Of a stretch of 64,000 nucleotides of DNA, positions 20,105-62,973 are shown piece after piece. The DNA comes from a bacterium (GTDB lineage Bacteria; Patescibacteriota; Dojkabacteria; JAKAPS01; JAJZLI01). Position numbers and translations under genes: made by a program. How positions within the stretch are numbered: position 1 is the first letter of the stretch; every line of letters starts with the position of its first letter. The notes under the pieces were generated by a model. It worked only from the letters and a program-made list of their open reading frames with translations, made no database searches and was not told the DNA's origin. The stretch covers positions 71,484 to 135,483 of the forward strand of contig JAJZWL010000001.1 in the NCBI GenBank assembly GCA_021846685.1, read 5' to 3'.

Positions 20105-20125
20105 TCTTTTTTATATAAAATTCGT

Positions 20126-22549: not shown

Positions 22550-22552
22550 TAC

Positions 22553-22948
22553 TTAATATTGTGATAAAATTAAGTTATATTGAACACTTCCCTGAGAATT
22601 ATTTTTCTGAGAAAGTACAAAATCATTATATGCTTTATTAGATATACTACTTTCATTTGAAAGATTTTTCTTTTCTGCGTTTAAAATACTTAATGCCTGT
22701 GCGCTAGTTTTTGGCGTTATAATAGGGCTATTCATTTGGTTGCTATTTTGATTTTTTAAAGTTATAGGTGGATTTGGAGTTATAGAATTAACATAAATTT
22801 CAAATAATATAATTAATATAAGTACTATTAGTAGTGATATAAATAAAATCATTACATGCTCAATTTTATTTTTTTTAGAGAATACTTTGTCATAAATAGT
22901 ACTTTCTGAGTTAGTCTTTTCCTGAGGGTCTTGTGTTAAATTATCCAT
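22553..22948 (-). CDS. Membrane-anchored hypothetical protein
   Basis: Single TM helix ILFISLLIVLILIILFEIYV then low-complexity ectodomain; probably in an operon with 21044-22549. Confidence 0.35.
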   Translation of the reverse strand: MDNLTQDPQEKTNSESTIYDKVFSKKNKIEHVMILFISLLIVLILIILFEIYVNSITPNPPITLKNQNSNQMNSPIITPKTSAQALSILNAEKKNLSNESSISNKAYNDFVLSQKNNSQGSVQYNLILSQY

Positions 22949-23041
22949 ATATTTATTATATATCTTTATAATTACATATATATTTTATTATTTCAATATA
23001 ACCTAAATAGAGTGTGTTCAGGAATCTTAAATGTATATTAG

Positions 23042-26726: not shown

Positions 26727-27488
26727 CTAACTCTTATCTAAAAGTTCTATTAATGATAATTTTAGATGAGGAATAATATTTCTTTGTCTCAAAGGAAGGA
26801 ATTTATTCAAATCATTCTTTAATTTTTTATCATTAAAAATTTGAACTCTTTTTTTTATTTCTTCTAATGTTACAATATTTTCATATAATTTCATTTTTTT
26901 GGACAATAATTCATAGTCTATTTTTACACCACGACTAAGTAAAAGCCATATATCAAATATATCTCTTCCTTTAGACCTTGTCATTAATGCTCTAATCTTT
27001 TCTGATAATATTTCAGAAACTCCAAATACTTTAATAATTGATGAATAGGGTATAGGCATTGAGGATTTTAGTAAAGAAGTATTTTCTTCTAACCATTCTT
27101 CTTGAGTGTTGATATCAATTCTTATATTTAATGGTTGAGATAATAAGCTATTCTCATATTTCAGTTTTGCTTTGAAATTGTCATACTTATTCACAATAAT
27201 GTCTAATCTTATTCCAGGTAAGAAATTTTGAATATCCTTCGTACTTTTTTCAAATAATATTTCTAAATCTGAATAAGATAATTTAGAATCAAAATCAAGA
27301 TCTTCACTAAAACGTATTGAATCATATACTAATCTTAATGCAGTTCCTCCTTTAAAGAAAATCTTATCACTATTTTTTGTTTGATATAAAGCTCCTAGGA
27401 AAACTAACTGAATATATTCCCTAATAATAGTATATTCATCAATTTCCCAATTAGAAGAATATTTTTTGAAATCTATATCATTGATCAT
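26727..27488 (-). CDS. AbiEii/AbiGii-family nucleotidyltransferase toxin (type IV TA / abortive infection), copy 1
   Basis: FFKGGTALRLVYDSIRFSEDLDFD, the hallmark DUF1814 motif; 4-nt overlap with the upstream AbiEi gene. Confidence 0.75.
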   Translation of the reverse strand: MINDIDFKKYSSNWEIDEYTIIREYIQLVFLGALYQTKNSDKIFFKGGTALRLVYDSIRFSEDLDFDSKLSYSDLEILFEKSTKDIQNFLPGIRLDIIVNKYDNFKAKLKYENSLLSQPLNIRIDINTQEEWLEENTSLLKSSMPIPYSSIIKVFGVSEILSEKIRALMTRSKGRDIFDIWLLLSRGVKIDYELLSKKMKLYENIVTLEEIKKRVQIFNDKKLKNDLNKFLPLRQRNIIPHLKLSLIELLDKS

Positions 27489-30863: not shown

Positions 30864-31931
30864 TTAAGCTGTAGGGTTAAAATAGTTTTCCACTGCAAAT
30901 CTGGATTGTTGCATAAATATATTTTTTAATAAACTTAAATTGTTTATTTCATAAAATACTAACATTGCTTCCCTATATTCATTAACATCTACATTTCTAA
31001 AAGATAATGGAAAAGAATTATGCGATAGTAGTAAAGCATTTGCAATAATTCTTCCTGTTCTTTTATTTCCATCCTCAAATGGTTGTATATATCCAATTAA
31101 TGGTATTGTAAGTAAAGCTTTTTCAAACACATTAGTTTTATTGTTAATAATTTTACAATATTGCTCTAATGCCTCTCTTATCTGAAAAACATTATCTAGT
31201 GGTTTATAGTTTGTTCCTGTTATTCTAACCAAACTATTTCTAATGTTTTTTGTCACACCCAAGTTGTCAATTAACAGTGAATGAATATGTTCAATTATTC
31301 CAACATTTAGTTCTATAAATTGGTCACCATTCTGTAATATGAATTCTAACGCTTTTTTGTGATTTATAATCATTATGGCCTCCTCTTTCTTTTTACCTTT
31401 TGCTTCTATACCGTCTTTTAAAAGAGTTTCAGTTTCAAGTAGAGTATATGTATTACCTTCCAAAACAGAAGATTTCCAGCTTATTTCAATTATTGCTCTT
31501 TCAAACTCTTTTTTTCGAATAACATCACTTAACTGTTTTACATTACCATTAAAATTTTCATTTAGAGTATTTAATTCAGATAATTCTTCCTTCGTCAATA
31601 TTTCATTTTGAACCAATGAAAATATATTACTATTGAATCTCTCTATAATTTCTCTATGATCAATATCTTTTTCATAATATTCCTTAGTATTTATATTCCT
31701 GAGTAAATTATATTTTATACTTAATCTATAACTAGTAGCTTTACCATTACCATGCTTCTCGATTAAATTTAAATTTAATAAATAAGACAGATCTCTATTT
31801 ACAGTCATGAAAGAGACTTCTTCATCAACAGTTTTTAAAAAATCAGTTATTTGAGATCTACCTAGCCACTTTTGAGTGGAAAGAATATTTAAAAGTTTGG
31901 ATTGTCTTTTATTTAATTTCATAATATTCAT
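30864..31931 (-). CDS. Fic/DOC-family protein with N-terminal wHTH
   Basis: Fic motif HPFEDGNKRTGRIIANALL (HPFx[DE]GNGR) and N-terminal HTH (SQITDFLKTVDEEVSFMTVNRDLSYLLNLNLIEK); 355 aa. Confidence 0.8.
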   Translation of the reverse strand: MNIMKLNKRQSKLLNILSTQKWLGRSQITDFLKTVDEEVSFMTVNRDLSYLLNLNLIEKHGNGKATSYRLSIKYNLLRNINTKEYYEKDIDHREIIERFNSNIFSLVQNEILTKEELSELNTLNENFNGNVKQLSDVIRKKEFERAIIEISWKSSVLEGNTYTLLETETLLKDGIEAKGKKKEEAIMIINHKKALEFILQNGDQFIELNVGIIEHIHSLLIDNLGVTKNIRNSLVRITGTNYKPLDNVFQIREALEQYCKIINNKTNVFEKALLTIPLIGYIQPFEDGNKRTGRIIANALLLSHNSFPLSFRNVDVNEYREAMLVFYEINNLSLLKNIFMQQSRFAVENYFNPTA

Positions 31932-38525: not shown

Positions 38526-38534
38526 TATATATCT

Positions 38535-38608
38535 GCTTCTGTAGCTTAATTGGATAAAGCATCAGATTGCGGATCTGAAGAGTATAGGTTCGAATCCTAT
38601 CAGAAGCA
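38535..38608 (+). tRNA. tRNA-Arg (anticodon GCG as read)
   Basis: GCTTCTGTAGCTTAATTGGATAAAGCATCAGATTGCGGATCTGAAGAGTATAGGTTCGAATCCTATCAGAAGCA; 7/4/5/5 stems, anticodon loop TTGCGGA. Confidence 0.7.
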
Positions 38609-38620
38609 AAGATAAATTAA

Positions 38621-38710
38621 GGAGAGATGCTGGAGTGGTTTATCAGGCTGTTCTCGAAAAACAGTATTCTTCTAAACAAAGGATCGTAAGTTCGAATCTT
38701 ACTCTCTCCG
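38621..38710 (+). tRNA. tRNA-Ser (anticodon CGA)
   Basis: GGAGAGATGCTGGAGTGG...CTGTTCTCGAAAAACAG...GTAAGTTCGAATCTTACTCTCTCCG; anticodon loop CTCGAAA, long variable arm. Confidence 0.8.
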
Positions 38711-40958: not shown

Positions 40959-41582
40959 ATGACCCCGTATAATGGGGGTATTATGAAACAGTTTAAAGAT
41001 GTAGAGAGATTAGAATACTTTGACCTAAAGACTTTAAAGAACTTTGTACCACTAGAGAGTAAATCCTTGTATAAACTGGTAAATAGGAGAGTAAAAGATC
41101 TGACTTTTATACAATTGAAAAAAGGATTATACACTACAAAAGCATTTATAGAAAATAATGATATGCTTTTATATAAAGAAAATATTGCAAATATTCTTAA
41201 AACTCCTTCATATATAAGCTTAGAGTATATGTTGTCAAAATACTCAATACTCACAGAAAGTGTATTCTCATTTACCTCTGTATCTACTAAGAAGACCAGA
41301 AGCTATATAAATACTTTAGGGACATATTCTTATAGAAATATCAAAGAAGATCTTTTTACAGGTTATGTAATAAGAAATAATATATATTATGCAACAAAGG
41401 CTAAATCGCTATTTGACTATATTTACTTTAAAAAAGAAGTATTAGAACTTGAGTCATTGAGATTAAACTTAGATGAATTTACTAAGTCAGATATAAAAGA
41501 ATTTAAAATATATTGCAAGAAATCTTCACGTATGCTTAAAATATATAATTTATTATTGAAATATAAAAAAAATGTTTATTGA
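40959..41582 (+). CDS. AbiEi-family antitoxin/regulator, copy 2
   Basis: 207 aa immediately upstream of and overlapping a DUF1814 toxin gene; same architecture as copy 1. Confidence 0.55.
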   Translation: MTPYNGGIMKQFKDVERLEYFDLKTLKNFVPLESKSLYKLVNRRVKDLTFIQLKKGLYTTKAFIENNDMLLYKENIANILKTPSYISLEYMLSKYSILTESVFSFTSVSTKKTRSYINTLGTYSYRNIKEDLFTGYVIRNNIYYATKAKSLFDYIYFKKEVLELESLRLNLDEFTKSDIKEFKIYCKKSSRMLKIYNLLLKYKKNVY

Positions 41583-42573
41583 AAAACTAAAACAAATAGT
41601 AAAGATGAAAAGTATAAAAAATCCGGAACTTCTAAGGGTTATTTTGAAGATGGAGCTTATTGAATATGTTTTACAGTATATTTATACGTCAAAATACCGT
41701 AATTTAATATTTAAAGGGGGAACATGTTTAAATATCTGTTATGATTTACCTAGACTTTCAGAAGATATAGATTTGGATTTTGTTAACGAGATAGATATAA
41801 GCTCATTAAGAGAAGATTTGATATCATATTTTAAAACTGAACTTGCATATGATAGGCTTTACGCCTCAGTAACAAATAATAATCAAACTATAACTTTAAA
41901 ATTTCCTGTTCTTAGGGATTTAGGTTTAGCAAATCAAAGCGAAAGTGATTTGTTATATATAAAACTTGATATACAAAAATCTCCATTCTTTAATATTACT
42001 ACTGACTTAGTTCCGAGAAAAAACTATGTAATTAAAGCTTATTCTCTTCCTCTGTTATTTACTGGGAAAGTAAATGCCATTTTTACTAGAAATAAGTTAG
42101 TTGGAAAAGAAAATAAATTTGTACCAAAAGGAAGAGATTATTTTGATTTACTTTGGTTTCTACAAAAAGGAATAAGACCAGATATTTCAATGCTTGAACA
42201 GGAACTGAATATATCTTCAAATATTGAATTTAAAGTTCGTTTAGATCAAAGAGTAATCGGTATGTTTACTAAATATAAGGATGAAATAATAAACGACCTA
42301 AAGCCATTTATTGAAAACACCGACATTCTTAATCAATTTGTAGAATCATTTTTACCATTATATTTAAAATATTCATTAGAGATTTTTGATTATAGAGTTC
42401 CTGATGAAGTATCAAGGCGAAATTATTTAATTGATGAGCTTAATTCTATTATAAAAGGGAAAAAGCTACAGGGCAAAGAAATTATGAAGGTTCTTAATGA
42501 TATGGATACTTATAAGAAAGGTTCTAACAATCTAGATATTCTAGGAATATACAATTATTTAATATCTTTATAG
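41572..42573 (+). CDS. AbiEii/AbiGii-family nucleotidyltransferase toxin, copy 2
   Basis: LIFKGGTCLNICYDLPRLSEDIDLDFV DUF1814 hallmark; 333 aa. Confidence 0.7.
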   Translation: MFIEKLKQIVKMKSIKNPELLRVILKMELIEYVLQYIYTSKYRNLIFKGGTCLNICYDLPRLSEDIDLDFVNEIDISSLREDLISYFKTELAYDRLYASVTNNNQTITLKFPVLRDLGLANQSESDLLYIKLDIQKSPFFNITTDLVPRKNYVIKAYSLPLLFTGKVNAIFTRNKLVGKENKFVPKGRDYFDLLWFLQKGIRPDISMLEQELNISSNIEFKVRLDQRVIGMFTKYKDEIINDLKPFIENTDILNQFVESFLPLYLKYSLEIFDYRVPDEVSRRNYLIDELNSIIKGKKLQGKEIMKVLNDMDTYKKGSNNLDILGIYNYLISL

Positions 42574-51525: not shown

Positions 51526-52071
51526 ATGCCTTATATATATATAGGTAATAAAAAAATATCTTATACTGTAAAGAAAAGTAAAAAGGCTAGAAATATAAGG
51601 TTGTCAGTATATAAAGATAATGAAATTAGGGTTACTGTCCCTTATCGTTATAATATAGATAATATTGATCAGTTATTACTTAATAAATCTGATTGGATAC
51701 TAAAGTCAATTTCAGAAAATAGTAAAAATTTTATAATAGAAGAAGCTGCTGAATTTTCCGTTTTAAAAAATGAGTATTTAAAATATATCACAGGTAGAGT
51801 TATATATTTAAATTCTTTTTATAATTTTAATTATCAAAAAATCACTTTGAGAAAATCAAAAACCAGATGGGGCAGTTGTTCTATAAATGGCAATTTAAAT
51901 TTTAATTATAAAATATATTATTTACCTCAAAAATTTTCTGATTACATAATTATTCATGAGCTTTGTCATCTAAAAGAGTTTAATCATTCTTCGAATTTTT
52001 GGGCTCTAGTAAAGGGTAGGATTCCTGAGTATAAAGAGATAAAAAAAGAATTAAAAAGGTATTCTTTATAA
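51526..52071 (+). CDS. DUF45/YgjP-like zinc-dependent hydrolase (M48/WLM-like HExxH)
   Basis: RWGSCS...N and IIHELCHLKEFNHSSNFW motifs. Confidence 0.65.
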   Translation: MPYIYIGNKKISYTVKKSKKARNIRLSVYKDNEIRVTVPYRYNIDNIDQLLLNKSDWILKSISENSKNFIIEEAAEFSVLKNEYLKYITGRVIYLNSFYNFNYQKITLRKSKTRWGSCSINGNLNFNYKIYYLPQKFSDYIIIHELCHLKEFNHSSNFWALVKGRIPEYKEIKKELKRYSL

Positions 52072-52141
52072 TTTATATAAATTACTCTATAATTATATAA
52101 AATACAGATTTACAAATATTAGTATATATGATATATTGTTC

Positions 52142-52170
52142 TTGCAATATAACTTGTTTATTTGTATAAT
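52142..52170 (+). promoter_or_regulatory. Sigma70-like promoter TTGCAA-17-TATAAT upstream of tuf
   Basis: CTTGCAATATAACTTGTTTATTTGTATAAT, 30 bp upstream of the tuf ATG. Confidence 0.45.
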
Positions 52171-52199
52171 CTCTTTGTTTAATTTAGTTAAAAAAAAAT

Positions 52200-53399
52200 A
52201 TGGCAGCCTTTGATAGAACAAAACCTCATAAAAACGTTGGTACTATTGGTCACGTTGATCATGGTAAGACAACTTTAACAGCAGCAATATTAAAAGTATT
52301 GTCAGCAGCTGGTTACGCAGCACAAAATAAGAGTGTAGATAATTTAGACGCAGCTCCTGAAGAAAAAGCTAGAGGAGTAACTATAGCTACAGCTCATACA
52401 GAGTATGAAACTGAGAAAAATCACTATGCTCATGTTGATTGTCCAGGACACGCAGATTATGTTAAGAATATGATTACAGGGGCAGCTCAAATGGATGGAG
52501 CTATATTAGTTGTTGCAGCTACAGATGGACCTATGCCTCAAACAAGAGAACATATACTTTTAGCAAGACAAGTTGGAGTACCTAAGATAGTTGTATTCCT
52601 TAATAAGGTAGATATGGTAGATGATCCTGAATTGGTTGATCTAGTAGAAATGGAAGTAAGAGAATTACTTTCTAAGTATGATTTTGATGGAGACGAAACT
52701 CCAATAGTTAGAGGAAGTGCTTTGAAAGCATTAGAATGTGGATGCGGAAAATCTGACTGTGAATGGTGTGGTCCAATTTTAACATTAATGAATAATGTAG
52801 ATGATTATATTCCTATTCCAGACAGAGAAGTAGATAAACCTTTCTTAATGCCTATCGAAGATGTATTTTCTATAGAAGGTAGAGGGACAGTTGCTACAGG
52901 AAGAGTCGAAAGAGGAACTCTTAAAGTAGGAGAAGAAGTTGATATTGTCGGATTAAGAGAAGATATCAGAAAATCAGTTGTTACAGGTGTAGAAATGTTT
53001 AATAAGTCATTGGAGACTGCACAAGCAGGAGATAATGTTGGTTTATTACTAAGAGGATTTAAAAGAGAGGATATTCAAAGAGGAGAGGTTGTTGCTAAAG
53101 TTGGGAGTGTTACTCCTCATACTGAATTTGAAAGTGAAGTATATATATTGACTAAAGAAGAAGGTGGAAGGCATTCTCAATTTGTTTCTGGATATAGACC
53201 TCAATTTTATATTAGAACTACAGATGTTACAGGAGAGATACAATTACCAGAGGGTGTAGAGTGTGCTCTTCCTGGAGATAATATAAAAATGATAGTAAGG
53301 TTAATTAATCCAGTAGCATTAGAAGCTGGAGTTAGATTTGCTATTAGAGAAGGTGGTAGAACAGTTGGAGCAGGAGTTATAAGTAAGATTATTAAGTAA
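52200..53399 (+). CDS. tuf: Elongation factor Tu
   Basis: [26 protein letters not shown], full 399 aa; contains the unusual segment [15 protein letters not shown] in domain I. Confidence 0.95.
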
Positions 53400-53419: not shown

Positions 53420-53725
53420 ATGGAAAACAAGAGAATAAGGGTAAAATTGAAAGGTTTTGATGTACAGATTTTGGATAAATCTGCTCAAAAGATTATTGAT
53501 GCAGCAATTTCTTCTGGTGCAAAAACATCTGGGCCGATACCATTACCTACTTCTATTAAAAAATATACAGTAGTAAGGTCTCCTCATATAGATAAAAGAT
53601 CTATGGAGACCTTTGAAATGAAGATTCATAAAAGACTTATTGATATACTCTCTCCTACAGGAAAAACAATTGATACTCTTACTCATTTACAACTCCCTGT
53701 AGGTGTTGGAATAGAAATTAAATAG
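53420..53725 (+). CDS. rpsJ: 30S ribosomal protein S10
   Basis: MENKRIRVKLKGFD...RSPHIDKRSMETFE. Confidence 0.9.
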   Translation: MENKRIRVKLKGFDVQILDKSAQKIIDAAISSGAKTSGPIPLPTSIKKYTVVRSPHIDKRSMETFEMKIHKRLIDILSPTGKTIDTLTHLQLPVGVGIEIK

Positions 53726-53774
53726 ATTTTAAATTAGTTTTTTTAAATACAGAGGTTTTATCTGTATTATTATT

Positions 53775-54371
53775 ATGAAAGGAATATTAGGTATTAAAAA
53801 AGATATGACTCAAATTTTCAGAGAGGATGGAAATGTAATTCCGGTAACCTTGATAGATACTGAAGGTTGTTTTGTATGTGCTGAAAAAAAATCTAAAACA
53901 GATGGATATGATGCAACAGTCTTGGGAATTGGATTAAAAAAGCATCCTACAAAGCCTGAAAAGGGTAAATATAAAAAATTGCATACTCCTCAGTTTGCAA
54001 GAGAATTTGGAAGAATTGAAGAGGTAACGGTAGGAGATAAAATTTTATCAAATATTTTTGAGGTAGGAGAAAAGGTGAATATTTCTGGAGTTAGTAAAGG
54101 TAAAGGTTTTACTGGTGTTGTTAAAAGATGGGGATTTCATGGTGGACCAAGGACTCATGGACAATCTGATAAAGAAAGGCATGGAGGTTCAATAGGATCA
54201 GGGACTACTCCAGGTAATGTTAAAAAGGGGAAAAAAATGCCAGGTAGATCTGGAGGAGATAAGATCATTGTTAAAAATTTGGAAATTGTTGAAATTAAAG
54301 ATGACATTTTAGTAGTAAAAGGAGCAATTCCTGGAGCTAGAGGTGGTTTAGTTATTATAAAGTCAGAATGA
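53775..54371 (+). CDS. rplC: 50S ribosomal protein L3
   Basis: GKGFTGVVKRWGFHGGPRTHGQS. Confidence 0.9.
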   Translation: MKGILGIKKDMTQIFREDGNVIPVTLIDTEGCFVCAEKKSKTDGYDATVLGIGLKKHPTKPEKGKYKKLHTPQFAREFGRIEEVTVGDKILSNIFEVGEKVNISGVSKGKGFTGVVKRWGFHGGPRTHGQSDKERHGGSIGSGTTPGNVKKGKKMPGRSGGDKIIVKNLEIVEIKDDILVVKGAIPGARGGLVIIKSE

Positions 54372-55003
54372 AGATAGATTTATACTCTCAAAAAGGAGTT
54401 AAAAGTACAAAAAAAATAGATATTAAAGATGAAATTTTTAAATATGAAGTTAATCAAAATTTGATTAATCAGTATATCTATATACATCTTGTTAATACAA
54501 GGCAAGGTACTAGATCTACAAAAGGAAGAGGTGAGGTATCAGGAACTGGGAAAAAACCTTGGAAGAATAATAAAGTTGCTAAGGCAAGGACTGGAAGTTT
54601 AAGAACTAATATTTTTAGAGGAGGAGGAGTTTCTCATGGGCCTAAACCTATGCGATTTGAATTATCAATGCCTTTAAAAATGAGAAGAAGAGCTTTGTAT
54701 TCTGCTTTATCTACAAAAATGAATGCTAAAGAAATTATTTTTATAGATAAACTCAAATTTTCCGAAGGAAAATTAACTAAACAAGGGTTAGAATTTTTAT
54801 CTGGATTTTCTTTAGAAGGTGTTAAAACATTGATTGTTACAGATAAAAAAGATGATAAACTTCTGAATGTATTCTCTAATATTGACAAAATTAGATTATT
54901 GTCTTCTAATTATATTAATGCATATGATATCCTAAATTATAGAAAAATATTATTTTTGAAAGATTCTTTGGAAAATATTCCGGGATATAAAGATTTAAAA
55001 TGA
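54368..55003 (+). CDS. rplD: 50S ribosomal protein L4
   Basis: TRQGTRSTKGRGEVSGTGKKPWKNNKVAKARTGSLRTNIFRGGGVSHGPKP. Confidence 0.9.
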   Translation: MKIDLYSQKGVKSTKKIDIKDEIFKYEVNQNLINQYIYIHLVNTRQGTRSTKGRGEVSGTGKKPWKNNKVAKARTGSLRTNIFRGGGVSHGPKPMRFELSMPLKMRRRALYSALSTKMNAKEIIFIDKLKFSEGKLTKQGLEFLSGFSLEGVKTLIVTDKKDDKLLNVFSNIDKIRLLSSNYINAYDILNYRKILFLKDSLENIPGYKDLK

Positions 55004-55386
55004 GAAAGTCCGATGTTTTAATAAAACCTATATTATCTGAAAAAGTACTAAGAGGAGTTGCTTCTGGTTGGTATGGTTTTGTAGTAGAGAGACATTCTGA
55101 TAAAATAGGTGTAAAATCTGCAGTAGAAAAAGCTTTTGGTGTTGATGTTATTGAAGTAAGATTGCTAGCTAAGAAAGGAAAGCAGGTAAGAGATATAAAT
55201 ATAAAGACAAGGTTAGTCAGACATAAAAGAACTGATCTTAAGAAAGCATATGTGAAATTAAAAGCTGGACAAGTAATTAATTTGTTAGGAGAGGATAAAG
55301 AGAAAGATGCAAAGAAGTTAAAAACTAAGAAAGGAAAAGTAGAAGATAAAAAGAAATTAAAAGAGGTTAAGAATGAAAAAGAATAA
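55000..55386 (+). CDS. rplW: 50S ribosomal protein L23 with about 30-aa Lys/Glu-rich C-terminal extension
   Basis: L23 core ILSEKVLRGVASGWYGFVVERHSDKIGVKSAVEKAFGVDVIEVRL then ...GEDKEKDAKKLKTKKGKVEDKKKLKEVKNEKE. Confidence 0.85.
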   Translation: MRKSDVLIKPILSEKVLRGVASGWYGFVVERHSDKIGVKSAVEKAFGVDVIEVRLLAKKGKQVRDINIKTRLVRHKRTDLKKAYVKLKAGQVINLLGEDKEKDAKKLKTKKGKVEDKKKLKEVKNEKE

Positions 55387-56227
55387 TATAAAAACAATGA
55401 AGACATATAATCCAGTAACACCTACGTTAAGGCATACTGTATTGGTTTCTAAAGATGGAGTAAGGAAAAATAATCCAGAAAAATCTTTATTAAAGAAGTT
55501 AAAATCTCACTCAGGTAGAAATTCTAGAGGAGTAATCACAGTAAGGCATCAGGGCGGAGGAGTAAAGAGAATGTATAGAATTATTGATTTTAAAAGAGAT
55601 AAATATGATATACCTTCTAAAGTTGCAAGAATAGAATATGATCCATATAGAACCGCTAGAATAGCTTTATTACACTATACAGACGGAGAAAAAAGGTATA
55701 TAATTGCTCCTGTTGGGCTTAAAGAAGGAGACTCTGTTATTTCTGGGAATAATGTTCCAATAGAAATTGGAAATTCACTTCCCTTGAGAAATATACCAAT
55801 AGGTTCTGAGATATATAATATTGAGCTTACTAAAGGTAGAGGTGGAATTTTAGTTAGAAGCGCAGGAAATGCCGCAAAGTTACAATCAATAGAGAATGAT
55901 ATAGCATTGGTTAAACTTCCTTCAGGAGAAGTAAGATATATCAGAGCTGAAAATTTTGCTAGTCTTGGTAGAGTTGGAAATACTGATCATGGAAATCAGA
56001 AGCTTGGAAAAGCAGGTAGGTCAAGGTATTTGGGAATAAGACCTTCAGTAAGAGGTATGGCTATGCATCCTAATCAGCATCCTCATGGAGGAGGAGAAGG
56101 AAAGGGACAAGTCGGAGGTATATCTAAAGATCTTTGGGGTCACAGAAGAGGAACTAAAACTAGAAGGAATAAAAGGACAGAAAAGTATATATTAATTACC
56201 AGAAAAGGTAGAAGATTAAAGAGATAA
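55373..56227 (+). CDS. rplB: 50S ribosomal protein L2
   Basis: SGRNSRGVITVRHQGGG...RGMAMHPNQHPHGGGEGKG. Confidence 0.95.
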   Translation: MKKNNIKTMKTYNPVTPTLRHTVLVSKDGVRKNNPEKSLLKKLKSHSGRNSRGVITVRHQGGGVKRMYRIIDFKRDKYDIPSKVARIEYDPYRTARIALLHYTDGEKRYIIAPVGLKEGDSVISGNNVPIEIGNSLPLRNIPIGSEIYNIELTKGRGGILVRSAGNAAKLQSIENDIALVKLPSGEVRYIRAENFASLGRVGNTDHGNQKLGKAGRSRYLGIRPSVRGMAMHPNQHPHGGGEGKGQVGGISKDLWGHRRGTKTRRNKRTEKYILITRKGRRLKR

Positions 56228-56230
56228 ATT

Positions 56231-56533
56231 ATGTCAAGATCAAGTAAAAAAGGTCCTTACGTAGACCAAAAATTATTAAAAAAGATATTAAGACAGAAAG
56301 AGAGTGGAGATAGAAAGCCTATCAAAACTTGGGCTAGAAACTGTACTATTGCGCCTGAAATGGTAGGATTTACTATCGCAGTACATAATGGGAGACATCA
56401 TATTCCTGTTTTAGTGAATGAATCAATGGTAGGACATAAATTAGGTGAGTTTTCTATAACAAGGACATTTAGAGGTCATAGTAAAAAGGGTAAAATTGCT
56501 CAATCACATGGTAGTGTAGGAAGAGTTGAATAA
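56231..56533 (+). CDS. rpsS: 30S ribosomal protein S19
   Basis: [12 protein letters not shown]...[25 protein letters not shown]. Confidence 0.95.
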
Positions 56534-56550
56534 TATAGAATATATAAAAT

Positions 56551-56910
56551 ATGGAAAATAAAAAAATAGCATTAGCAAAAATTAAAAACATAAAAGGATC
56601 TGCAAGAAAGACTAGATTGGTTGTGAATGCTATTAGAAAATTATCTCCAGAGGTTGCTTTGGAAAATTTGCAATTTATGAATTATAGAAATTCTGAAGTT
56701 GTTTCTAAAGTTATAAAAACTGCTATTAATAATGCTAATCTTTCAAAGATGCAAACTCCATATAAGTTTGAAGAGATAAGAGTAGATGAAGGTATAACAA
56801 GAAAGGGATTAAGGTTTAAGGGTAGGGCTAATGTTGAAATCTTAAGTAAGAGATATTGTAATATTACTGTTAAAATTAGTGAATTAAAAAAAGATGGGAA
56901 GGAAAGTTAA
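56551..56910 (+). CDS. rplV: 50S ribosomal protein L22
   Basis: ARKTRLVVNAIRKLSPEVALENLQFMN...RVDEGITRKGLRFKGRANVEI. Confidence 0.9.
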   Translation: MENKKIALAKIKNIKGSARKTRLVVNAIRKLSPEVALENLQFMNYRNSEVVSKVIKTAINNANLSKMQTPYKFEEIRVDEGITRKGLRFKGRANVEILSKRYCNITVKISELKKDGKES

Positions 56911-57547
56911 TCCTGTAGGATTCAGGATAGGAATAAATAAAAATTATAAATCTTTATGGTTTGCTGAGGGAGATATATACAAAAAACAGCTCCAGGAAGA
57001 TTTAAATGTTAGAAAATTTCTTAAAAAATCTTTGAAATCTGCGGGAATAGGAGAAATTACTATAAAAAGGTCTTTAAATAATGTAATTATAGATATTTCT
57101 GTCGCAAGGCCAGGGGTAGTTATAGGAAAAGGTGGTCAAGGTTTGGAAGATTTAAAAAAGACACTAGATGTAATGTTTGGAAGTGGTGTACATTTAGATG
57201 TTCACGATATCAAAAAGCCAGAGTTATGTGCTATGATTGTCTCTCAAAATATTGTTGATGGAGTATTGAAAAGGATGTCAGCAAAATTTTTGATGGAAAG
57301 AGAATTGATTAAAATTAGGGAGGGAGGAGCATTAGGTGCTAAAATACAGGTGTCAGGAAGAGTTAATGGATCTGAAATTCATAGAACTGATAAAGTAAAA
57401 TTTGGATCAGTTCCACTTCAGACACTTAGAGCAGATATAGATTATTCTGATAATTATGCTAAAACAAAAAGTTTTGGTGTTTTAGGTGTAAAGGTTTGGA
57501 TCTATAAAGGAGAAAAAAATTATATGGATGAGGATACTGGATCATGA
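56894..57547 (+). CDS. rpsC: 30S ribosomal protein S3
   Basis: MGRKVNPVGFRIGINKNYKSLWFA, KH domain GKGGQGLEDLKKTL. Confidence 0.95.
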   Translation: MGRKVNPVGFRIGINKNYKSLWFAEGDIYKKQLQEDLNVRKFLKKSLKSAGIGEITIKRSLNNVIIDISVARPGVVIGKGGQGLEDLKKTLDVMFGSGVHLDVHDIKKPELCAMIVSQNIVDGVLKRMSAKFLMERELIKIREGGALGAKIQVSGRVNGSEIHRTDKVKFGSVPLQTLRADIDYSDNYAKTKSFGVLGVKVWIYKGEKNYMDEDTGS

Positions 57548-57963
57548 TAATGCAACCAAAAAGACAAAAATATAGAAGAACTTTTAGAGGTGATCTTACT
57601 AAGGTTGCTAGTAATGGTTATACTTTGAGCTTTGGAGAATATGGACTAAAAGCTATGACTTCTGGGTTGATGACTGCAAGGCAAATTGAGTCTGCAAGGA
57701 AAACCATTACACATTATACTAAGAGAGGTGGTAAAATATGGATAAGAGTTTTTCCATATATGCCTCTTACAAAAAAATCAGAAGGTTCCAAAATGGGTTC
57801 TGGTAAAGGAAATGTTGTAGGTTTTGGGACTCCTATAAAAGCTGGTAGTATTTTATTTGAAATCGTAGGAGTTAATGAAGATATTGCAAAAGAAGCATTT
57901 AGATTAGCTTCTCATAAAATACCTTTTAAAGTAAAATTTGTTAGAGTTTCGGATCAATTTTAA
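57544..57963 (+). CDS. rplP: 50S ribosomal protein L16
   Basis: MQPKRQKYRRTFRG...RVFPYMPLTKKSEGSKMGSGKG. Confidence 0.95.
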   Translation: MIMQPKRQKYRRTFRGDLTKVASNGYTLSFGEYGLKAMTSGLMTARQIESARKTITHYTKRGGKIWIRVFPYMPLTKKSEGSKMGSGKGNVVGFGTPIKAGSILFEIVGVNEDIAKEAFRLASHKIPFKVKFVRVSDQF

Positions 57964-57968
57964 AAATT

Positions 57969-58193
57969 ATGGATACAGTAAATATAAGAAAATTAAATAG
58001 AATAGAGATTCATAAGGAAATTAATAAACTTCAGGATGAATTATTGAAGAAAAAAATGTCTTTGAGGTTACAGTTAACTCAAAAATCTTCAAGTGAAGGT
58101 ATAAATGTATCTGAAATAGGTAAAATAAAAAAACAAATAGCAAGATTTCAAACTATTTTAAATGAAAAAGTTTACTTAGAAAATAAAGAATAA
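57969..58193 (+). CDS. rpmC: 50S ribosomal protein L29
   Basis: 74 aa, ELLKKKMSLRLQLTQKSS coiled-coil, positioned between rplP and rpsQ. Confidence 0.85.
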   Translation: MDTVNIRKLNRIEIHKEINKLQDELLKKKMSLRLQLTQKSSSEGINVSEIGKIKKQIARFQTILNEKVYLENKE

Positions 58194-58642
58194 TGGCAGA
58201 TAAAAAAATAATAAAAAAAACAATAACAGAGAAAAAAGTACCAGTAGCTAAAAAAACTGTTACTAAAGAAGTATCATCTAAGATAGTGAAGCCAGTAGCT
58301 AAAAAAACTGTTTTAAAAACAAAGAGTGTGAAGAAGGATGTCCTTGTTAAAAAAGTGAAGACACCTAAAAAAGAGATCTTAGATATAGATAAGAAAATTT
58401 CTCATAAAAGAAGATTAAAGGCTATTGTATTAAAAGATAATAGTGTGGCTCATAAATTCTTGAATGTAGAAGTTACTAGATATGTTGCACATCCTTTATA
58501 TAAGAAAATGATAAAGAGAAAAAAGAAATATTTGGTATCATGTCCTCAAGATGTGGATTTTGTATTAGGAGAGAGAGTTTTGATAGAAGAGACAAGCCCT
58601 ATATCAAAAAGAATTAAATTTAAATATATATCTAAGGTATAA
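58193..58642 (+). CDS. rpsQ: 30S ribosomal protein S17 with about 65-aa Lys-rich repetitive N-terminal extension
   Basis: S17 core RRLKAIVLKDNSVAHKFLNVEVTRYVAHPLYKKMIKRKKKYLVSCPQ...GERVLIEETSPISKRIKF. N-terminal KKTVTKEV/KKTVLKTK repeats. TAATG overlap with the rpmC stop supports the ATG. Confidence 0.85.
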   Translation: MADKKIIKKTITEKKVPVAKKTVTKEVSSKIVKPVAKKTVLKTKSVKKDVLVKKVKTPKKEILDIDKKISHKRRLKAIVLKDNSVAHKFLNVEVTRYVAHPLYKKMIKRKKKYLVSCPQDVDFVLGERVLIEETSPISKRIKFKYISKV

Positions 58643-58645
58643 ATT

Positions 58646-59017
58646 ATGTTACAAAAAGAATCTGTAATAAAATGTATTGATAATACTGGGGCAAAAGAGC
58701 TTAGGATAATTGGAACTTTAGGTGCTTCATTCAGAAGGTATTCTCGTATAGGAGATCGAGTAAAATGTTCTGTAGTAAAAGCTACTCCTTCTGGACAAAT
58801 ATCTATGCATGAAAAGGTAACTGCAGTTATTGTTAGAACTCGAAAAGAAACTAGAAGAAAAGATGGGTCATATATTAGGTTTGATGATAATGCGGCTGTT
58901 ATAATAGATGATAAAAATGGAGAACCTAAGGGGACTGCTGTTTTTGGGCCTGTTGCACGTGAATTAAGAGAGAGAGGCTATAATAAATTAGTTAGTTTAG
59001 CAAATGAAGTACTATGA
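58646..59017 (+). CDS. rplN: 50S ribosomal protein L14
   Basis: [23 protein letters not shown]...[23 protein letters not shown]. Confidence 0.95.
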
Positions 59018-59304
59018 AAATAAAACTAAATGATTCTGTAAAAATATTAAGTGGAAATAATAAAGGAAAAGTAGCAAAAGTTACTAAGGTGCTTTCTTCA
59101 AAAGGGAAAGCATATGTAGATGGTATTAATATCTATAAAAAGAATGTAAGAGGTCAAGGTATAGTAGATATTCAAAAGCCTATAAATGCTTCTATTTTAG
59201 GAGTTGTATGTCCTAAATGTGGGAAAACAACTAGAGTTGGTTATTCTATTAATGAAAAAGGATTTAAAGACAGAATTTGTATGAAGTGTAAGGATGTAAT
59301 ATGA
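59014..59304 (+). CDS. rplX: 50S ribosomal protein L24 with C-terminal CxxC...CxxC motif
   Basis: KOW region [18 protein letters not shown]; C-terminal [30 protein letters not shown]. Confidence 0.85.
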
Positions 59305-60020
59305 GAGGATTTATAGCAGGAAGGAATCCTGTTTTGTCTATTTTAAAAAAAAATAATATAAAAGTTGTAACTGTTAAAATAGATAAAAATGCTAAAGAAG
59401 ATAGTAAAATAAATGAAATCTTAGCTCTTTGTGAAAATAAAAATGTAAATATTATTTATGTAGATAGGAATACTTTAAGAGATTATTCTCAAAATCAAGG
59501 TATTGTTGCAGAATTTACAAAAGAAGATAATTTTGATTTGGAAGAAATTTTATTGAATAATCCTTTTATTATTATTTTAAGAGAGATTATGTATAAACAG
59601 AATTTTGGTGCTATAATAAGAACTTGTGATATAGCAGGTGTTAATCTTTTGGTGTTACCTAAAAAGAATAAGAATTTACATTTAGATAGTGAAGTTGCAA
59701 GAATCTCTGAGGGAGCTTCATTAAATATGAATTTTCTATATACGAATCTTTTTGAATTTATAGATAAATTAAAATTATTTAATGTTTCTATATTTGGAAT
59801 TGAAAATATAGGAGATGATATTTACTTTAACACTAACCTTAAAGGTTCTGTAGCATTTTTATTTGGATCTGAAGCTAGTTCAATATCAGAACCACTCACT
59901 AAAAGATGTGATAAAATACTAAAGATTCCTCAAAGTGAAAAAAGCACTTTGAATTCTTTAAATATAGCATCGTCTGTTAGTATAGTGGTTTATGAAAAAG
60001 TAAGACAAAATAGTATATGA
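59301..60020 (+). CDS. SpoU/TrmH-family RNA 2'-O-methyltransferase (RlmB-like) embedded in the spc operon
   Basis: N-terminal SpoU substrate-binding-like region GRNPVLSILKK, SPOUT motifs NFGAIIRTCDIAGV, FLFGSEASSIS, IPQSEKSTLNSLNIASSVSIVVYE; ATGA overlaps with rplX and rplE. Confidence 0.75.
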   Translation: MRGFIAGRNPVLSILKKNNIKVVTVKIDKNAKEDSKINEILALCENKNVNIIYVDRNTLRDYSQNQGIVAEFTKEDNFDLEEILLNNPFIIILREIMYKQNFGAIIRTCDIAGVNLLVLPKKNKNLHLDSEVARISEGASLNMNFLYTNLFEFIDKLKLFNVSIFGIENIGDDIYFNTNLKGSVAFLFGSEASSISEPLTKRCDKILKIPQSEKSTLNSLNIASSVSIVVYEKVRQNSI

Positions 60021-60556
60021 GTAATTTAAAAGAACAATATTACAATAAAATAAGAAAAGATATAAAAAAAGAGTTAAAACTTGATAATATATATGCTGTG
60101 CCTAATTTATCTAAGATTGTTATTAATTCAGGGGTATCAAGTGCTGTTTCTAATCCTGATTCATTAAATGATGTAAAGGATATTATGATAGCTATTTCAG
60201 GGCAATTACCTTTAGTTACAAAAGCAAGAGAATCTATCTCTAATTTTCATCTTAGAGAAGGTATGAATATAGGCTTAATGGTAACATTGAGGAATGATAG
60301 AATGTGGGATTTTTATGAAAAACTGGTAGAGATAGTTATTCCTAGATTTAGAGATTTTAGAGGTTTGAAAAAAAGTTCTTTTGATAAAAATGGTAATTAC
60401 AATTTAGGTATTCCAGATCATTCTGTGTTTCCTGAGGTTGTACAAATACACCTAGATAAGGTAAAATCACTACAGGTAACTATAGTGACTACTGCAAAAA
60501 ATAAAGAAGATGCAATAGTTTTATTTAATCACTTAGGGTTTCCTTTAGAAAAGTAA
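60017..60556 (+). CDS. rplE: 50S ribosomal protein L5
   Basis: [34 protein letters not shown]...RDFRGL. Confidence 0.95.
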
Positions 60557-60560
60557 TATT

Positions 60561-60755
60561 ATGGCAAGAAAAGCTTTATTAGATAAACAACAAGAAAGAG
60601 TTAAAAAAATCAAGTATGATGTTAGAAAATATACAAGATGTTTACAGTGTGGTAGGTCTAAATCTGTATTTAGAGATTTTGGATTATGTAGGATATGTCT
60701 TAGGCATTTTATTTTAGAAGGAAAAATTCCAGGAGTTAGGAAATCTTCCTGGTAA
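60561..60755 (+). CDS. rpsZ: 30S ribosomal protein S14 type Z (zinc-binding)
   Basis: 64 aa, CLQCGRS...CRICLR Cys4. Confidence 0.9.
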
Positions 60756-60765
60756 TATTATAATT

Positions 60766-61143
60766 ATGAGTGATCCAATAGCTGATTTATTAACAAGAAT
60801 AAGAAATGCAATTATGAGAGGTCATACTGTTGTATCTATACCTAAGAGTATAATAAAGGAGGATATTGTCAAAGTATTGCTTGAAAAGAAATTTATTAAA
60901 TCATATGAAGTAGTAGATAATGATATAGTAGTAACGTTAAAATATAAGAAAGGAGAGAATAGGATATCTGGGATAGCAAGAGTTTCAAAACCTAGTTTAA
61001 GAAGATATTCTTCATATAGGAATATCCCTAAAGTTTTGAATGGGTTAGGTTTTTATATAATTTCCACTCCTGAGGGTGTGATTTCTGATAAAGAAGCAAT
61101 CACAAAAAAGGTTGGAGGAGAATTAATTTGTAAAGTTTGGTAA
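60766..61143 (+). CDS. rpsH: 30S ribosomal protein S8
   Basis: MSDPIADLLTRIRNA...GGELICKVW. Confidence 0.95.
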   Translation: MSDPIADLLTRIRNAIMRGHTVVSIPKSIIKEDIVKVLLEKKFIKSYEVVDNDIVVTLKYKKGENRISGIARVSKPSLRRYSSYRNIPKVLNGLGFYIISTPEGVISDKEAITKKVGGELICKVW

Positions 61144-61149
61144 AATATT

Positions 61150-61695
61150 ATGTCAAGAATAGGAAAAATTCCAATACAAATAAAAGAAGGTATAACGGTA
61201 GATATATCAGAAGAAAGGATTACTGTAAAAGGTCCTAAGGGTGAATTATCTATTCCAAATTCTTTTAGAGTAAAAGTTGAATTAAAAAATGGAGAAGTAA
61301 CTGTTCAAAGAAGAAGTGACCAGAAAGAAGATAAAGCTTTTCATGGGTTATATAGATCTTTAATTAATAATATGGTAATTGGAGTTGCAGAAGGTTTTTC
61401 TAAAGAACTTGAAATAAGAGGTATTGGATATAGAGTTGTTCTAGATAATGATAATCTTGTTATTAATGTAGGTTATTCACATTCTGTAATTGTTAAAAAA
61501 GTTGAAGGTATAGAATTTAATATTACAGATAATAATTTTATTAAAATTTCTGGTATTGATAAACAATTAGTTGGACAAGTAGCTGCTAATATTAGAAGTA
61601 TAAGAAAGCCTGAGCCATATAAAGGTAAGGGAATTAGATATAAAGATGAAATTGTTGTTAAAAAAGCTGGAAAGTCAGCAAAGGCTGCTAAATAA
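61150..61695 (+). CDS. rplF: 50S ribosomal protein L6
   Basis: MSRIGKIPIQIKEGITVDI...KGPKGEL...EPYKGKGIRY. Confidence 0.95.
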   Translation: MSRIGKIPIQIKEGITVDISEERITVKGPKGELSIPNSFRVKVELKNGEVTVQRRSDQKEDKAFHGLYRSLINNMVIGVAEGFSKELEIRGIGYRVVLDNDNLVINVGYSHSVIVKKVEGIEFNITDNNFIKISGIDKQLVGQVAANIRSIRKPEPYKGKGIRYKDEIVVKKAGKSAKAAK

Positions 61696-61697
61696 TT

Positions 61698-62039
61698 ATG
61701 AAAATAATAAATAATAAAACAAAAAGACATTTAGTCATAAGAAAAAAAATAAAAGGAGTAAGTAATAGACCTAGATTATCTGTATTTAGATCTAATAAAG
61801 AGATGTATGTACAGTTAATAGATGATGAATTAGCAGTTACTATTTTAGGAATGAGTTCTAAGGTTATTAGTAAAGGAAAAAATAAGACAGATAAGTCATA
61901 TAATCTAGGTTTAGAGTTTGGTAAATTAGCTAAAAAGAAAGGATATGATAAAATAGTTTTTGATAGAGGTGGAAATAAATATCATGGAAGAGTTAAAGCT
62001 TTTGCAGATGGTGCAAGAGAGAGTGGTTTAATATTTTAA
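61698..62039 (+). CDS. rplR: 50S ribosomal protein L18
   Basis: RPRLSVFRSNKEMYVQLIDD...GNKYHGRVKAFADGARESGLIF. Confidence 0.9.
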   Translation: MKIINNKTKRHLVIRKKIKGVSNRPRLSVFRSNKEMYVQLIDDELAVTILGMSSKVISKGKNKTDKSYNLGLEFGKLAKKKGYDKIVFDRGGNKYHGRVKAFADGARESGLIF

Positions 62040-62051
62040 TAAATTGATAAC

Positions 62052-62543
62052 ATGAATGATAATAATATTGATAAATCTATAAATAATGAAATAGAAGATA
62101 ATTCAAATAATATTGAATTGGATAACTATATACTTGAGACTACTAGGGTTACTAAAGTAACAAAAGGAGCTAAAAGATTTAGATTTTCAGCTATGGTTGT
62201 TGTTGGAAACAGAAATGGTACTCTAGGAATAGGTAAAGGTGTGGGAGCAGATCCTAAGTCAGCTATTGAGAAGGCTATAAGGAGGGCAAAAGCTTCTTTA
62301 GTTAAAATTAATATAACTGATAACACAATTACTCATGAATTAGTACAAGATTTTAAAGCTTCTCGCATAATATTTAAACCAGCTGTTCCTGGAACTGGTA
62401 TTATTGCTGGGAAAAATATAAAACCTATTCTAGAATTGGCAGGAGTGAAGGATGTTTTATCAAAAAGAGTGGGTTCGTCAAATAAAAAATCAAACATATA
62501 TTGTTGTTTTTTAGCTTTAAAAAATTTAAAACCAAGAAAATAA
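62052..62543 (+). CDS. rpsE: 30S ribosomal protein S5
   Basis: VTKVTKGAKRFRFSAMVVVGNRNGTLGIGKGVGADPKSAIEKA; about 30-aa Asn/Asp-rich N-terminal extension. Confidence 0.9.
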   Translation: MNDNNIDKSINNEIEDNSNNIELDNYILETTRVTKVTKGAKRFRFSAMVVVGNRNGTLGIGKGVGADPKSAIEKAIRRAKASLVKINITDNTITHELVQDFKASRIIFKPAVPGTGIIAGKNIKPILELAGVKDVLSKRVGSSNKKSNIYCCFLALKNLKPRK

Positions 62544-62544
62544 T

Positions 62545-62973
62545 ATGATTATAAAAGGAAAAGTAAAAGATAAAAAGAAAAAAATAATAGGAAGAGGATT
62601 TGGATCTGGGAAAGGTGGTCATACTTCTACTAGGGGTATGAAAGGACAAAATAGTAGAGCAGGTTCACATATTTCTAAATATTTTGAAGGAGGTCAAAAT
62701 CCCTTAATACAAAGAGTCCCATATCTTAAAGGATTTAAAAGATATAGTGTGAAAATCGAAATTTTGAATTTGGGATTTATAGATAAATATTTTAATGATG
62801 GAGATAGTATTAGTCTGAAAAGTTTACAAGACAGAGGTTTTGTAAGAAAAAACAAAGTAAAAATACTTTCTTTCGGAGATATTTCTAAAAATCTTAAATT
62901 TATAGCCTCAGATTTTGCTTTTTCAAAAAAGGCATTAGAAAAAATAGAAAAGTCAAAATCTGAATTAATATAA
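62545..62973 (+). CDS. rplO: 50S ribosomal protein L15 (directly after rpsE; no rpmD/L30 gene between)
   Basis: GRGFGSGKGGHTSTRGMKGQNSRAG...; only 1 nt separates the rpsE stop and the rplO start. Confidence 0.9.
   Translation: MIIKGKVKDKKKKIIGRGFGSGKGGHTSTRGMKGQNSRAGSHISKYFEGGQNPLIQRVPYLKGFKRYSVKIEILNLGFIDKYFNDGDSISLKSLQDRGFVRKNKVKILSFGDISKNLKFIASDFAFSKKALEKIEKSKSELI

Follow-up and report, generated by a model that had tools for sequence, protein, structure and literature searches.

The spc operon in the 64-kb stretch of DNA analyzed here (the window) carries a gene for a predicted rRNA methyltransferase between the genes of ribosomal proteins L24 and L5. We put a probability of roughly 0.78 on the reading that an RlmB orthologue entered the spc operon in the ancestor of one CPR clade, has been inherited vertically with at least two dropouts, and is expressed from the S10-spc mRNA in coupling with its neighbors to act on 23S rRNA. 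The arrangement is a lineage-specific variant of the spc operon with a divergent orthologue of RlmB, an enzyme whose family is already known, and it reveals neither a new enzyme class nor a new mechanism.

Gene order and junctions of the S10-spc cluster

The S10-spc cluster lies at positions 53420..62973 on the + strand, and the window ORFs give the order S10-L3-L4-L23-L2-S19-L22-S3-L16-L29-S17-L14-L24-[methyltransferase]-L5-S14-S8-L6-L18-S5-L15. Genes are separated by tiny gaps or overlap all along the cluster, and relatives have the identical order. Except for the added methyltransferase gene and a missing L30, the spc part follows the canonical single-strand order L14-L24-L5-S14-S8-L6-L18-S5-(L30)-L15-SecY. 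L30 was not found between S5 and L15 in the window cluster; its absence is typical of CPR bacteria. An Rfam scan of the 64-kb window detected tRNAs only, with no ribosomal protein leader and no rRNA gene.

The L24 gene rplX (59014..59304, +) encodes 96 aa and was identified by TIGR01079 (70.8 bits, cutoff 53.7) and by the Pfam ribosomal_L24 and KOW domains; its product ends in a C-terminal CxxC...CxxC zinc-ribbon. It is followed by the gene for the putative RlmB-type SPOUT rRNA 2'-O-methyltransferase (59301..60020, +; ATG start, TGA stop, 239 aa) and by the L5 gene rplE (60017..60556, +; 179 aa; NF000585 218.9 bits, cutoff 186). The TGA stop of L24 and the ATG start of the methyltransferase share the 4-nt sequence ATGA at 59301..59304 (+), and the methyltransferase stop and the L5 start share another 4-nt ATGA at 60017..60020 (+). 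The first-pass annotation had described the ORF with these coordinates, this length and both ATGA overlaps, and was exact in all of them. This junction style is also used at L3/L4, L4/L23, S3/L16 and L14/L24 in the window cluster.

Identity of the encoded protein

Both Pfam domains of the encoded protein were detected above their gathering scores, bearing out the initial assignment to the SpoU/TrmH-class (SPOUT) RNA 2'-O-methyltransferases. The L30e-like N-terminal substrate-binding domain SpoU_sub_bind (PF08032) covers aa 4-75 (59310..59525, +) with an E value of 8.9e-11 and 42.4 bits (cutoff 22.8), and the C-terminal SPOUT catalytic domain SpoU_methylase (PF00588) covers aa 89-231 (59565..59993, +) with an E value of 5.9e-30. 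The latter match spans profile positions 2-142 of 142, and its score of 104.7 bits (cutoff 29.7) answers the suggestion, made at first pass, that failure in SPOUT profile searches would speak against the assignment. No second SPOUT gene was found by hmmsearch in the 64-kb window.

The top NCBIfam model was TIGR00186 (RlmB) with 129.5 bits and an E value of 1.3e-37, aligned end-to-end (aa 4-236 to model positions 4-239 of 240). This model leads every non-RlmB NCBIfam model by ~90 bits. The TrmL, NshR/TsnR, TrmJ and TrmH models reach 27-41 bits, and model scores thus place the protein with RlmB, a choice that the first-pass annotation had left between RlmB, TrmH and TrmJ. The score of the window protein lies below the TIGR00186 equivalog cutoff of 160.15 bits, as do those of its close clade (P0006 and P0190, 118-130 bits), and the operon-embedded proteins P0191, P0193 and P0197 of a sister clade score above it with 166-172 bits. 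Among solved structures, the top sequence match was E. coli RlmB (1GZ0) with 72.9 bits and an E value of 2.9e-19, and the runner-up reached 44.5 bits. A profile of the operon-embedded family scored E. coli RlmB at 148.8 bits versus at most 86.2 bits for other proteins (YsgA/RlmP ~86, RlmR 84). Since the sister-clade proteins share this place in the operon and pass the RlmB cutoff, the window ORF is best read, from its sequence, as a divergent, fast-evolving RlmB orthologue.

The three SPOUT motifs noticed at first pass were located at aa 98-114, 186-196 and 208-232. Motif 1, YKQNFGAIIRTCDIAGV (59592..59642, +), holds N101 (59601-59603) and R107 (59619-59621), as judged by alignment to 1GZ0. 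Motif 2, FLFGSEASSIS (59856..59888, +), holds G189-S-E191 with E191 at 59871-59873, and motif 3, KIPQSEKSTLNSLNIASSVSIVVYE (59922..59996, +), holds P210 and S219-L-N221 with N221 at 59961-59963. Aligned residue by residue to 1GZ0, N101, R107, E191 and N221 correspond to N108, R114, E198 and N226 of E. coli RlmB; this is the native RlmB numbering, and the PDB construct has 10 additional N-terminal residues. All four residues are invariant or nearly so in 70 homologues (N101 invariant, R107 nearly). A single variant, P0003, has R107G, and its 90% cluster-mate, present on 8 contigs, keeps the arginine. In E. coli, the catalytically dead RlmB variant E198A abolishes methylation (PMC11194073). The window clade has serine at the usual second glycine of GxExxG in motif 2 and, compared to the sister clade and E. 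coli RlmB, a 2-residue insertion in motif 3.

An AlphaFold2 model of the window protein, based on the 70-sequence alignment, had a pLDDT of 94.1 and a pTM of 0.88. The top Foldseek match to this model was 1GZ0 (TM 0.86, rmsd 2.5 A, 26% identity), with further matches to RlmR, NHR, AviRb, YsgA and MRM3 at TM 0.75-0.87. As modeled, the protein has a SPOUT-class alpha/beta fold. These sequence comparisons suggest that the protein most likely methylates the 2'-O of the P-loop guanosine that corresponds to G2251 in 23S rRNA. The site remains a prediction, since enzymes with the same two-domain fold methylate other sites of 23S rRNA: G2553 in the case of RlmP, U2552 in RlmR, U2479 in AviRb and A1067 in TsnR/NHR.

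Distribution of the gene among relatives and unrelated bacteria

Close homologues of the window protein (60-97% identity) form just six 90%-identity clusters, and identity then falls to ~35%. All close homologues with readable genomic context are located between L24 and L5 (L001-L008, in assemblies from ENA, Logan and NCBI that are independent of each other). An L5 search yielded relatives at graded distances, whose contexts were then read. The methyltransferase is missing between L24 and L5 in L172 (labelled 'Patescibacteria group bacterium'), L173 and L175, whose L5 proteins are 67%, 66% and 60% identical to that of the window. It is present at this position in L174 (L5 59% identical) as a protein of 241 aa with 52% identity to the window methyltransferase. 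The junctions of the non-carriers are clean: L24 and L5 overlap by ATGA in L172 and L175 and are separated by a 10-nt spacer in L173. This presence and absence pattern among the examined relatives matches the patchy retention of RlmB reported for CPR bacteria (PMC12641178).

With L174 and a fragment from L091 added to the profile, a further search detected a second clade, P0191-P0197, of 258-275 aa and at 30-36% identity. In the comparison made for the enzyme tree, the two operon-embedded clades are 30-37% identical to each other, no closer than to other RlmBs. Both of the second-clade members with readable context, one in L176 (GCA_025450075.1) and one on a JGI contig, are encoded between L24 and L5, with overlaps on both sides. 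In L091, a metagenome contig with an L5 54% identical to that of the window, the methyltransferase overlaps L5 as in the window. The L24-methyltransferase-L5 order with overlapping frames was found in L001-L008, L174, L176, L091 and JGI contig 3300050821, and is thus shared by at least 10 independent assemblies with ribosomal protein identities down to ~54%. The same insertion is therefore found in related genomes, where the first-pass annotation had proposed to look for it, and an intact ORF in independent ENA, NCBI, JGI and Logan assemblies rules out the frameshift or stop artefact that it had named as a possible refutation.

We also examined 160 L5-centered loci of diverse bacteria, collected in a scan of genome contigs with the window L5 and a scan of metagenome contigs with an L5 alignment. 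The L5 peptide patterns were too specific and both scans missed the lineage's own genomes. The loci serve as negative controls, and L091 was found among them. A methyltransferase upstream of L5 was present in one of the 160 loci, which is L091, a relative of the window organism. The remaining 159 loci had no gene between L24 and L5 and no methyltransferase match. Their L14-to-L5 distance is at most 925 nt, and therefore leaves no room for L24 and a 240-aa gene. Direct adjacency of rplX and rplE, which the first-pass annotation had given as the canonical bacterial order, holds throughout these unrelated loci, and its view of the position as unusual and lineage-specific is upheld by carriers that are confined to one Patescibacteria clade.

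Larger gaps between L24 and L5 in other phyla were considered as candidate inserted genes and rejected; they are N-terminal extensions of L5, low-complexity sequence or DUF1508 repeats. Three homologues at 33-35% identity, the distant P0007, P0008 and P0011, were likewise rejected as operon carriers; their contexts are unrelated and outside ribosomal protein operons. Among 1.84 billion representatives at 50% identity, the two operon clades correspond to two representatives (358 and 343 bits) and the next match scores 241 bits. Just two such representatives followed by this drop in score indicate that the carrier group is small and rare.

Evolutionary history

We inferred a neighbor-joining species tree from a concatenation of 14 ribosomal proteins (1908 columns, 300 bootstraps). 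The carriers and the three non-carriers form one Patescibacteria clade of 10 taxa with 100% bootstrap support. Within it, the window, L005, L001 and L006 group together with 100% support, their sister is the pair of L172 and L173 (89%), and L175 and L174 branch below these two groups. L176 and L091 pair with 100% support as sister to the remaining eight taxa. Two inner lineages of the clade, L172 with L173 and L175, are thus without the gene. It is also absent in the outgroups L112, L114, L133, L153, L089, L092, L096, L049 and L018, where L24 directly abuts L5. Most likely, the gene was inserted once, long ago, on the stem of the clade and was later lost from the operon or moved out of it at least twice.

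In the methyltransferase tree, each of the two operon clades is monophyletic with 100% support, and the window clade is on a long branch. The union of both operon clades appears in 24% of bootstraps, and the enzyme tree neither confirms nor contradicts a single origin. With such a low bootstrap value, the single origin rests on operon position and the species tree and not on the enzyme tree.

When the window is compared with L005, the methyltransferase has a dN/dS ratio of 0.17; the ratio is 0.12 for L5, 0.13 for S8 and 0.16 for L6. The GC content of the methyltransferase gene is 23-27%, that of its neighbors 26-32% and that of the whole window 27.8%. The gene is under purifying selection and is vertically inherited; it is neither a pseudogene nor an artefact, and a recent transfer is excluded as well. 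The description of the gene as inserted, given at first pass, thus holds in the sense of an extra gene at the L24/L5 junction and fails if taken to mean a recent event: tree, GC content and dN/dS show an old, vertically inherited gene with later losses.

Transcription and translation

A promoter/terminator scan showed no excess of promoter-like sites (70 versus 62.7 expected) or of terminator-like sites (4 versus 2.7 expected), and comparison with relatives revealed no conserved hairpins at the junctions. Two terminator-like hairpins in the methyltransferase ORF, at 59315-59333 and 59930-59952, were considered as regulatory elements and rejected; relatives do not conserve one of them, and the second is a weak by-product of coding sequence. 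Because both junctions overlap, with no excess of promoters or terminators and no conserved junction structures, we infer that the methyltransferase gene is co-transcribed with the flanking ribosomal protein genes.

Translation of the methyltransferase is likely to be coupled to that of L24, the gene upstream, and to lead on into L5, the gene downstream. There is no SD-like sequence upstream of L5 (predicted SD:anti-SD duplex of -0.4 kcal/mol), and the methyltransferase has the SD-like sequence AAGGA (-5.9 kcal/mol), among the better ones in the cluster. An L5 start inside the methyltransferase stop without SD, behind a methyltransferase with SD, therefore fits coupling by termination and reinitiation. 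This pattern is weak evidence for coupling because most genes in the cluster are without an SD-like sequence. The stoichiometric co-expression with ribosomal proteins that the first-pass annotation had proposed is not supported in this form and need not follow from position in the operon. [quoted passage not shown]

Alternative explanations

One alternative, which we consider unlikely, is that the protein is an RlmB-fold enzyme with a substrate other than G2251, such as another 2'-O site in 23S rRNA (A-loop G2553 or U2552, as for RlmP and RlmR) or a site in tRNA. Scores of the window clade below the RlmB equivalog cutoff, its long branch and its derived motifs 2 and 3 would be consistent with a changed substrate, as would the Foldseek matches to RlmR, NHR, AviRb and YsgA, which are barely worse than that to RlmB. 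Against this, RlmB is the clear winner in sequence comparisons with both the single protein and the family profile, and the positional orthologues in the sister clade exceed the RlmB cutoff. A tRNA enzyme is further disfavored by TrmH, TrmL and TrmJ, which are without the N-terminal domain and have far lower scores. It is also conceivable, and in our judgment improbable, that the protein is chiefly a methylation-independent assembly chaperone made at near ribosomal protein levels, with relaxed or lost catalysis and an operon position that provides an abundant supply. RlmB(E198A) still promotes assembly of the E. coli 50S subunit and yeast Pet56 also has a role that does not depend on methylation (PMC11194073), the set of biogenesis factors is small in CPR bacteria (PMC12641178), and the window clade evolves fast. 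The L5 gene, starting without SD in the methyltransferase stop, may moreover depend for its output on ribosomes translating the methyltransferase. The absence of an SD at L5 is, however, not special, as most cluster genes are alike in this respect; the clade keeps all three motifs and all four catalytic residues, with the sole R107G variant offset by its arginine-bearing cluster-mate; and the enzyme genes embedded in the trmD operon are a precedent for low translation in such a position.

The arrangement could in principle also reflect a recent horizontal insertion of a selfish or antibiotic resistance-type methyltransferase (TsnR/AviRb-like), or an error of assembly or annotation. Homologues above 50% identity are few, as the two 50%-identity clusters illustrate, and there are weak matches to NshR/TsnR models. 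These matches reach 39-70 bits, however, versus cutoffs of 425-500, and the gene resembles its neighbors in composition, is under purifying selection and has no mobile-element genes near it among the window ORFs. A 7-nt direct repeat, ATATGAG, at both gene ends was examined as a footprint of insertion or deletion and rejected; it is mostly forced by the Ile-stop/ATGA overlaps, with four of its seven bases dictated by ATGA. Conservation across independent assemblies with strongly diverged ribosomal proteins effectively refutes an origin of this kind, which we regard as extremely improbable.

Proposed function and significance

We therefore return to an RlmB orthologue that became part of the spc operon. 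The common ancestor of one clade of Patescibacteria (CPR) would have acquired an RlmB gene at the rplX-rplE site, and the operon copy would have descended vertically under purifying selection, with loss from the operon on at least two occasions. The polycistronic S10-spc mRNA would carry the methyltransferase cistron, and the frame overlaps with both neighbors would couple its translation to L24 and onward to L5. The enzyme would then be made whenever large-subunit proteins are made and would act on 23S rRNA at an early stage of 50S assembly, methylating it and possibly also helping it to fold. E. coli RlmB promotes 50S assembly even without its catalytic activity (PMC11194073), and the complement of biogenesis factors in CPR bacteria is about half of what is usual (PMC12641178). 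This role of RlmB in 50S assembly and the few biogenesis factors of CPR bacteria make a tight linkage to large-subunit proteins plausible. A bolder extension, which we offer as quite unlikely, is that RlmB of this clade is a quasi-stoichiometric component of large-subunit assembly, translated like a ribosomal protein because L5 reinitiates at its stop. It would serve mainly as a folding chaperone of the P-loop/H80 with methylation as a secondary function, and the fast evolution of the window clade would reflect adaptation to this task.

We found no description of the L24-rlmB-L5 arrangement in the literature. JGI records carry these genes under an automatic annotation as Gm2251 methyltransferase. 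Few gene orders in bacteria are as conserved as that of the spc operon, and a long-fixed gene for a non-ribosomal enzyme inside it is therefore uncommon. It offers a natural setting in which to ask whether an rRNA-modifying enzyme gains from production in lock-step with large-subunit proteins. This question is sharper in CPR bacteria, with about half of the usual biogenesis factors gone, and it ties in with the methylation-independent role of RlmB in the 50S subunit. The L24-rlmB-L5 junction is also of practical use as a simple, synapomorphy-like marker of one Patescibacteria clade. For annotators, a SPOUT protein scoring below threshold in these genomes is best named RlmB-like.

Comparison with known systems

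The closest known protein is E. coli RlmB (YjfH; Gm2251; 1GZ0), a SAM-dependent 2'-O-ribose methyltransferase of 23S rRNA, which shares the two-domain organization of L30e-like SpoU_sub_bind and SPOUT domain (knotted in E. coli RlmB), is the best match by sequence, profile and fold, and has the conserved catalytic residues N108, R114, E198 and N226. The window protein differs from it by the identity of just 26%, by a score under the NCBI equivalog cutoff, by serine for glycine in motif 2 and by the 2-residue insertion in motif 3. The E. coli rlmB gene presumably follows rnr, outside ribosomal protein operons. Fold and domain order are also shared with YsgA/RlmP (Gm2553), RlmR (Um2552), AviRb (Um2479), TsnR/NHR (Am1067) and the mitochondrial MRM1/Pet56 and MRM3; their sequence scores are far below that of RlmB, their targets are different, and the resistance enzymes among them come from antibiotic producers.

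Genomic association of an RlmB gene with ribosomal protein genes is known from Firmicutes, where rlmB (yacO) is near the rpmG-secE-nusG-rplK cluster; one of the homologues retrieved here, P0009, is annotated as YacO. Unlike the window gene, the Firmicutes gene is not placed between two ribosomal protein cistrons of the spc operon and has no overlap with them. An additional cistron at the L24/L5 junction is found in the archaeal spc operon, which has S4e between L24 and L5. There the extra gene encodes a ribosomal protein, whereas the window operon carries an enzyme gene and is otherwise wholly bacterial.

By analogy, the nearest functional counterpart of the L24-methyltransferase-L5 architecture would be the trmD operon (rpsP-rimM-trmD-rplS), in which a gene for an RNA methyltransferase of the SPOUT superfamily is placed among, and co-transcribed with, ribosomal protein genes (PMC4378010). 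TrmD belongs to a different SPOUT family and is a tRNA m1G37 enzyme, and its operon is near-universal in bacteria, unlike the L24-methyltransferase-L5 order, which is confined to one clade. The genes of the E. coli trmD operon have their own initiation regions, whereas the window methyltransferase has ATGA overlaps at both of its junctions.

Borders and variation of the methyltransferase gene

The same 7-nt sequence, ATATGAG, lies as a direct repeat at both junctions of the RlmB-type methyltransferase gene (239 aa, window 59301-60020, forward strand) with its neighbours (window 59298-59304 and 60014-60020). If these two repeats recombined with each other, the gene would be cut out exactly and an ATGA overlap between L24 and L5 restored; such an overlap is present in L172 and L175, two relatives which do not carry the gene. 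The repeat may also have arisen by chance, given that the overlap itself fixes four of its seven nucleotides.

In the methyltransferase of one carrier relative (protein P0003, locus L005, GCA_021829415.1), residue 107 is glycine, not the catalytic arginine of SPOUT motif 1. P0061, a member of the same 90%-identity cluster found on eight contigs, has arginine at this position. The glycine of P0003 is either a variant of a single metagenome-assembled genome or an error.

Extensions of ribosomal proteins

Other loci show a different type of variation at the L24/L5 junction. In six Spirochaetota/Brevinematales-like loci (L032, L052, L058, L064, L065 and L075), approximately 420-450 nt separate L24 from the conserved part of L5. 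An inserted gene was considered for this stretch and rejected, since it corresponds to an N-terminal extension of L5 itself, Lys/Glu-rich and of low complexity, with a length of ~140-170 aa, as verified for L065 and L052. In metagenome contigs L139 (1076-2185) and L132 (2916-4031), two DUF1508 (YegP-like) repeats are fused to the N-terminus of L5 together with a low-complexity Lys/Glu/Ala linker, for a total of 369-371 aa.

In the window, L24 (59014-59304) has a CxxC...CxxC zinc-ribbon (CPKCGK...CMKC) in its C-terminal part. A C-terminal zinc-ribbon is also found in L24 of the Brevinematales/Spirochaetota-like loci L065 (3240-3551) and L052 (3252-3563), and this feature is therefore not unique to the lineage of the window. 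S17 (58193-58642) has 149 aa, of which about 75 at the N-terminus form a Lys-rich extension; the match to the Pfam S17 domain is limited to aa 86-145. L23 (55000-55386) has a Lys/Glu-rich C-terminal tail. The lengths of these extensions differ between relatives; S17, for example, ranges from 85 to 159 aa.

Other genes and tRNAs in the window

At window 51526-53399, a YgjP-like metallopeptidase gene, and not the usual rpsL-rpsG-fusA, is located upstream of tuf, which encodes EF-Tu; in this stretch, therefore, tuf and S10 do not adjoin the str operon. Elsewhere in the window are two AbiEii-type nucleotidyltransferase toxin genes of type IV toxin-antitoxin systems and one Fic/DOC-domain gene (26727-27488, 41572-42573 and 30864-31931), as well as several ORFs of 130-500 aa without a Pfam match, such as those at 19469-20617 and 21044-23935. 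At window 38534-38710, ARAGORN placed tRNA-Ser(CGA) at 38621-38710, immediately after tRNA-Arg(GCG); this tRNA-Ser was not reported by the Rfam scan at gathering thresholds.

Translation initiation and genome features

Most genes of the S10-spc cluster (window 53420-62973) lack a Shine-Dalgarno-like (SD) sequence and have A/T-rich upstream regions, often with AATT just before the ATG. The majority of predicted SD:anti-SD duplexes in the cluster are weaker than -4 kcal/mol. These sequence features suggest that initiation in this organism may be SD-independent or coupled.

The gene rpmD (L30) is missing from the S5/L15 junction of the window (62543-62545), where a 1-base gap is found, and the same holds for every relative examined. 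TGA serves as a stop within the ATGA overlaps, which indicates the standard genetic code. The absence of rpmD, the GC content of the window (27.8%) and a small genome, as seen in the 757-kb contig of a relative, are consistent with a CPR/Patescibacteria organism using this code.
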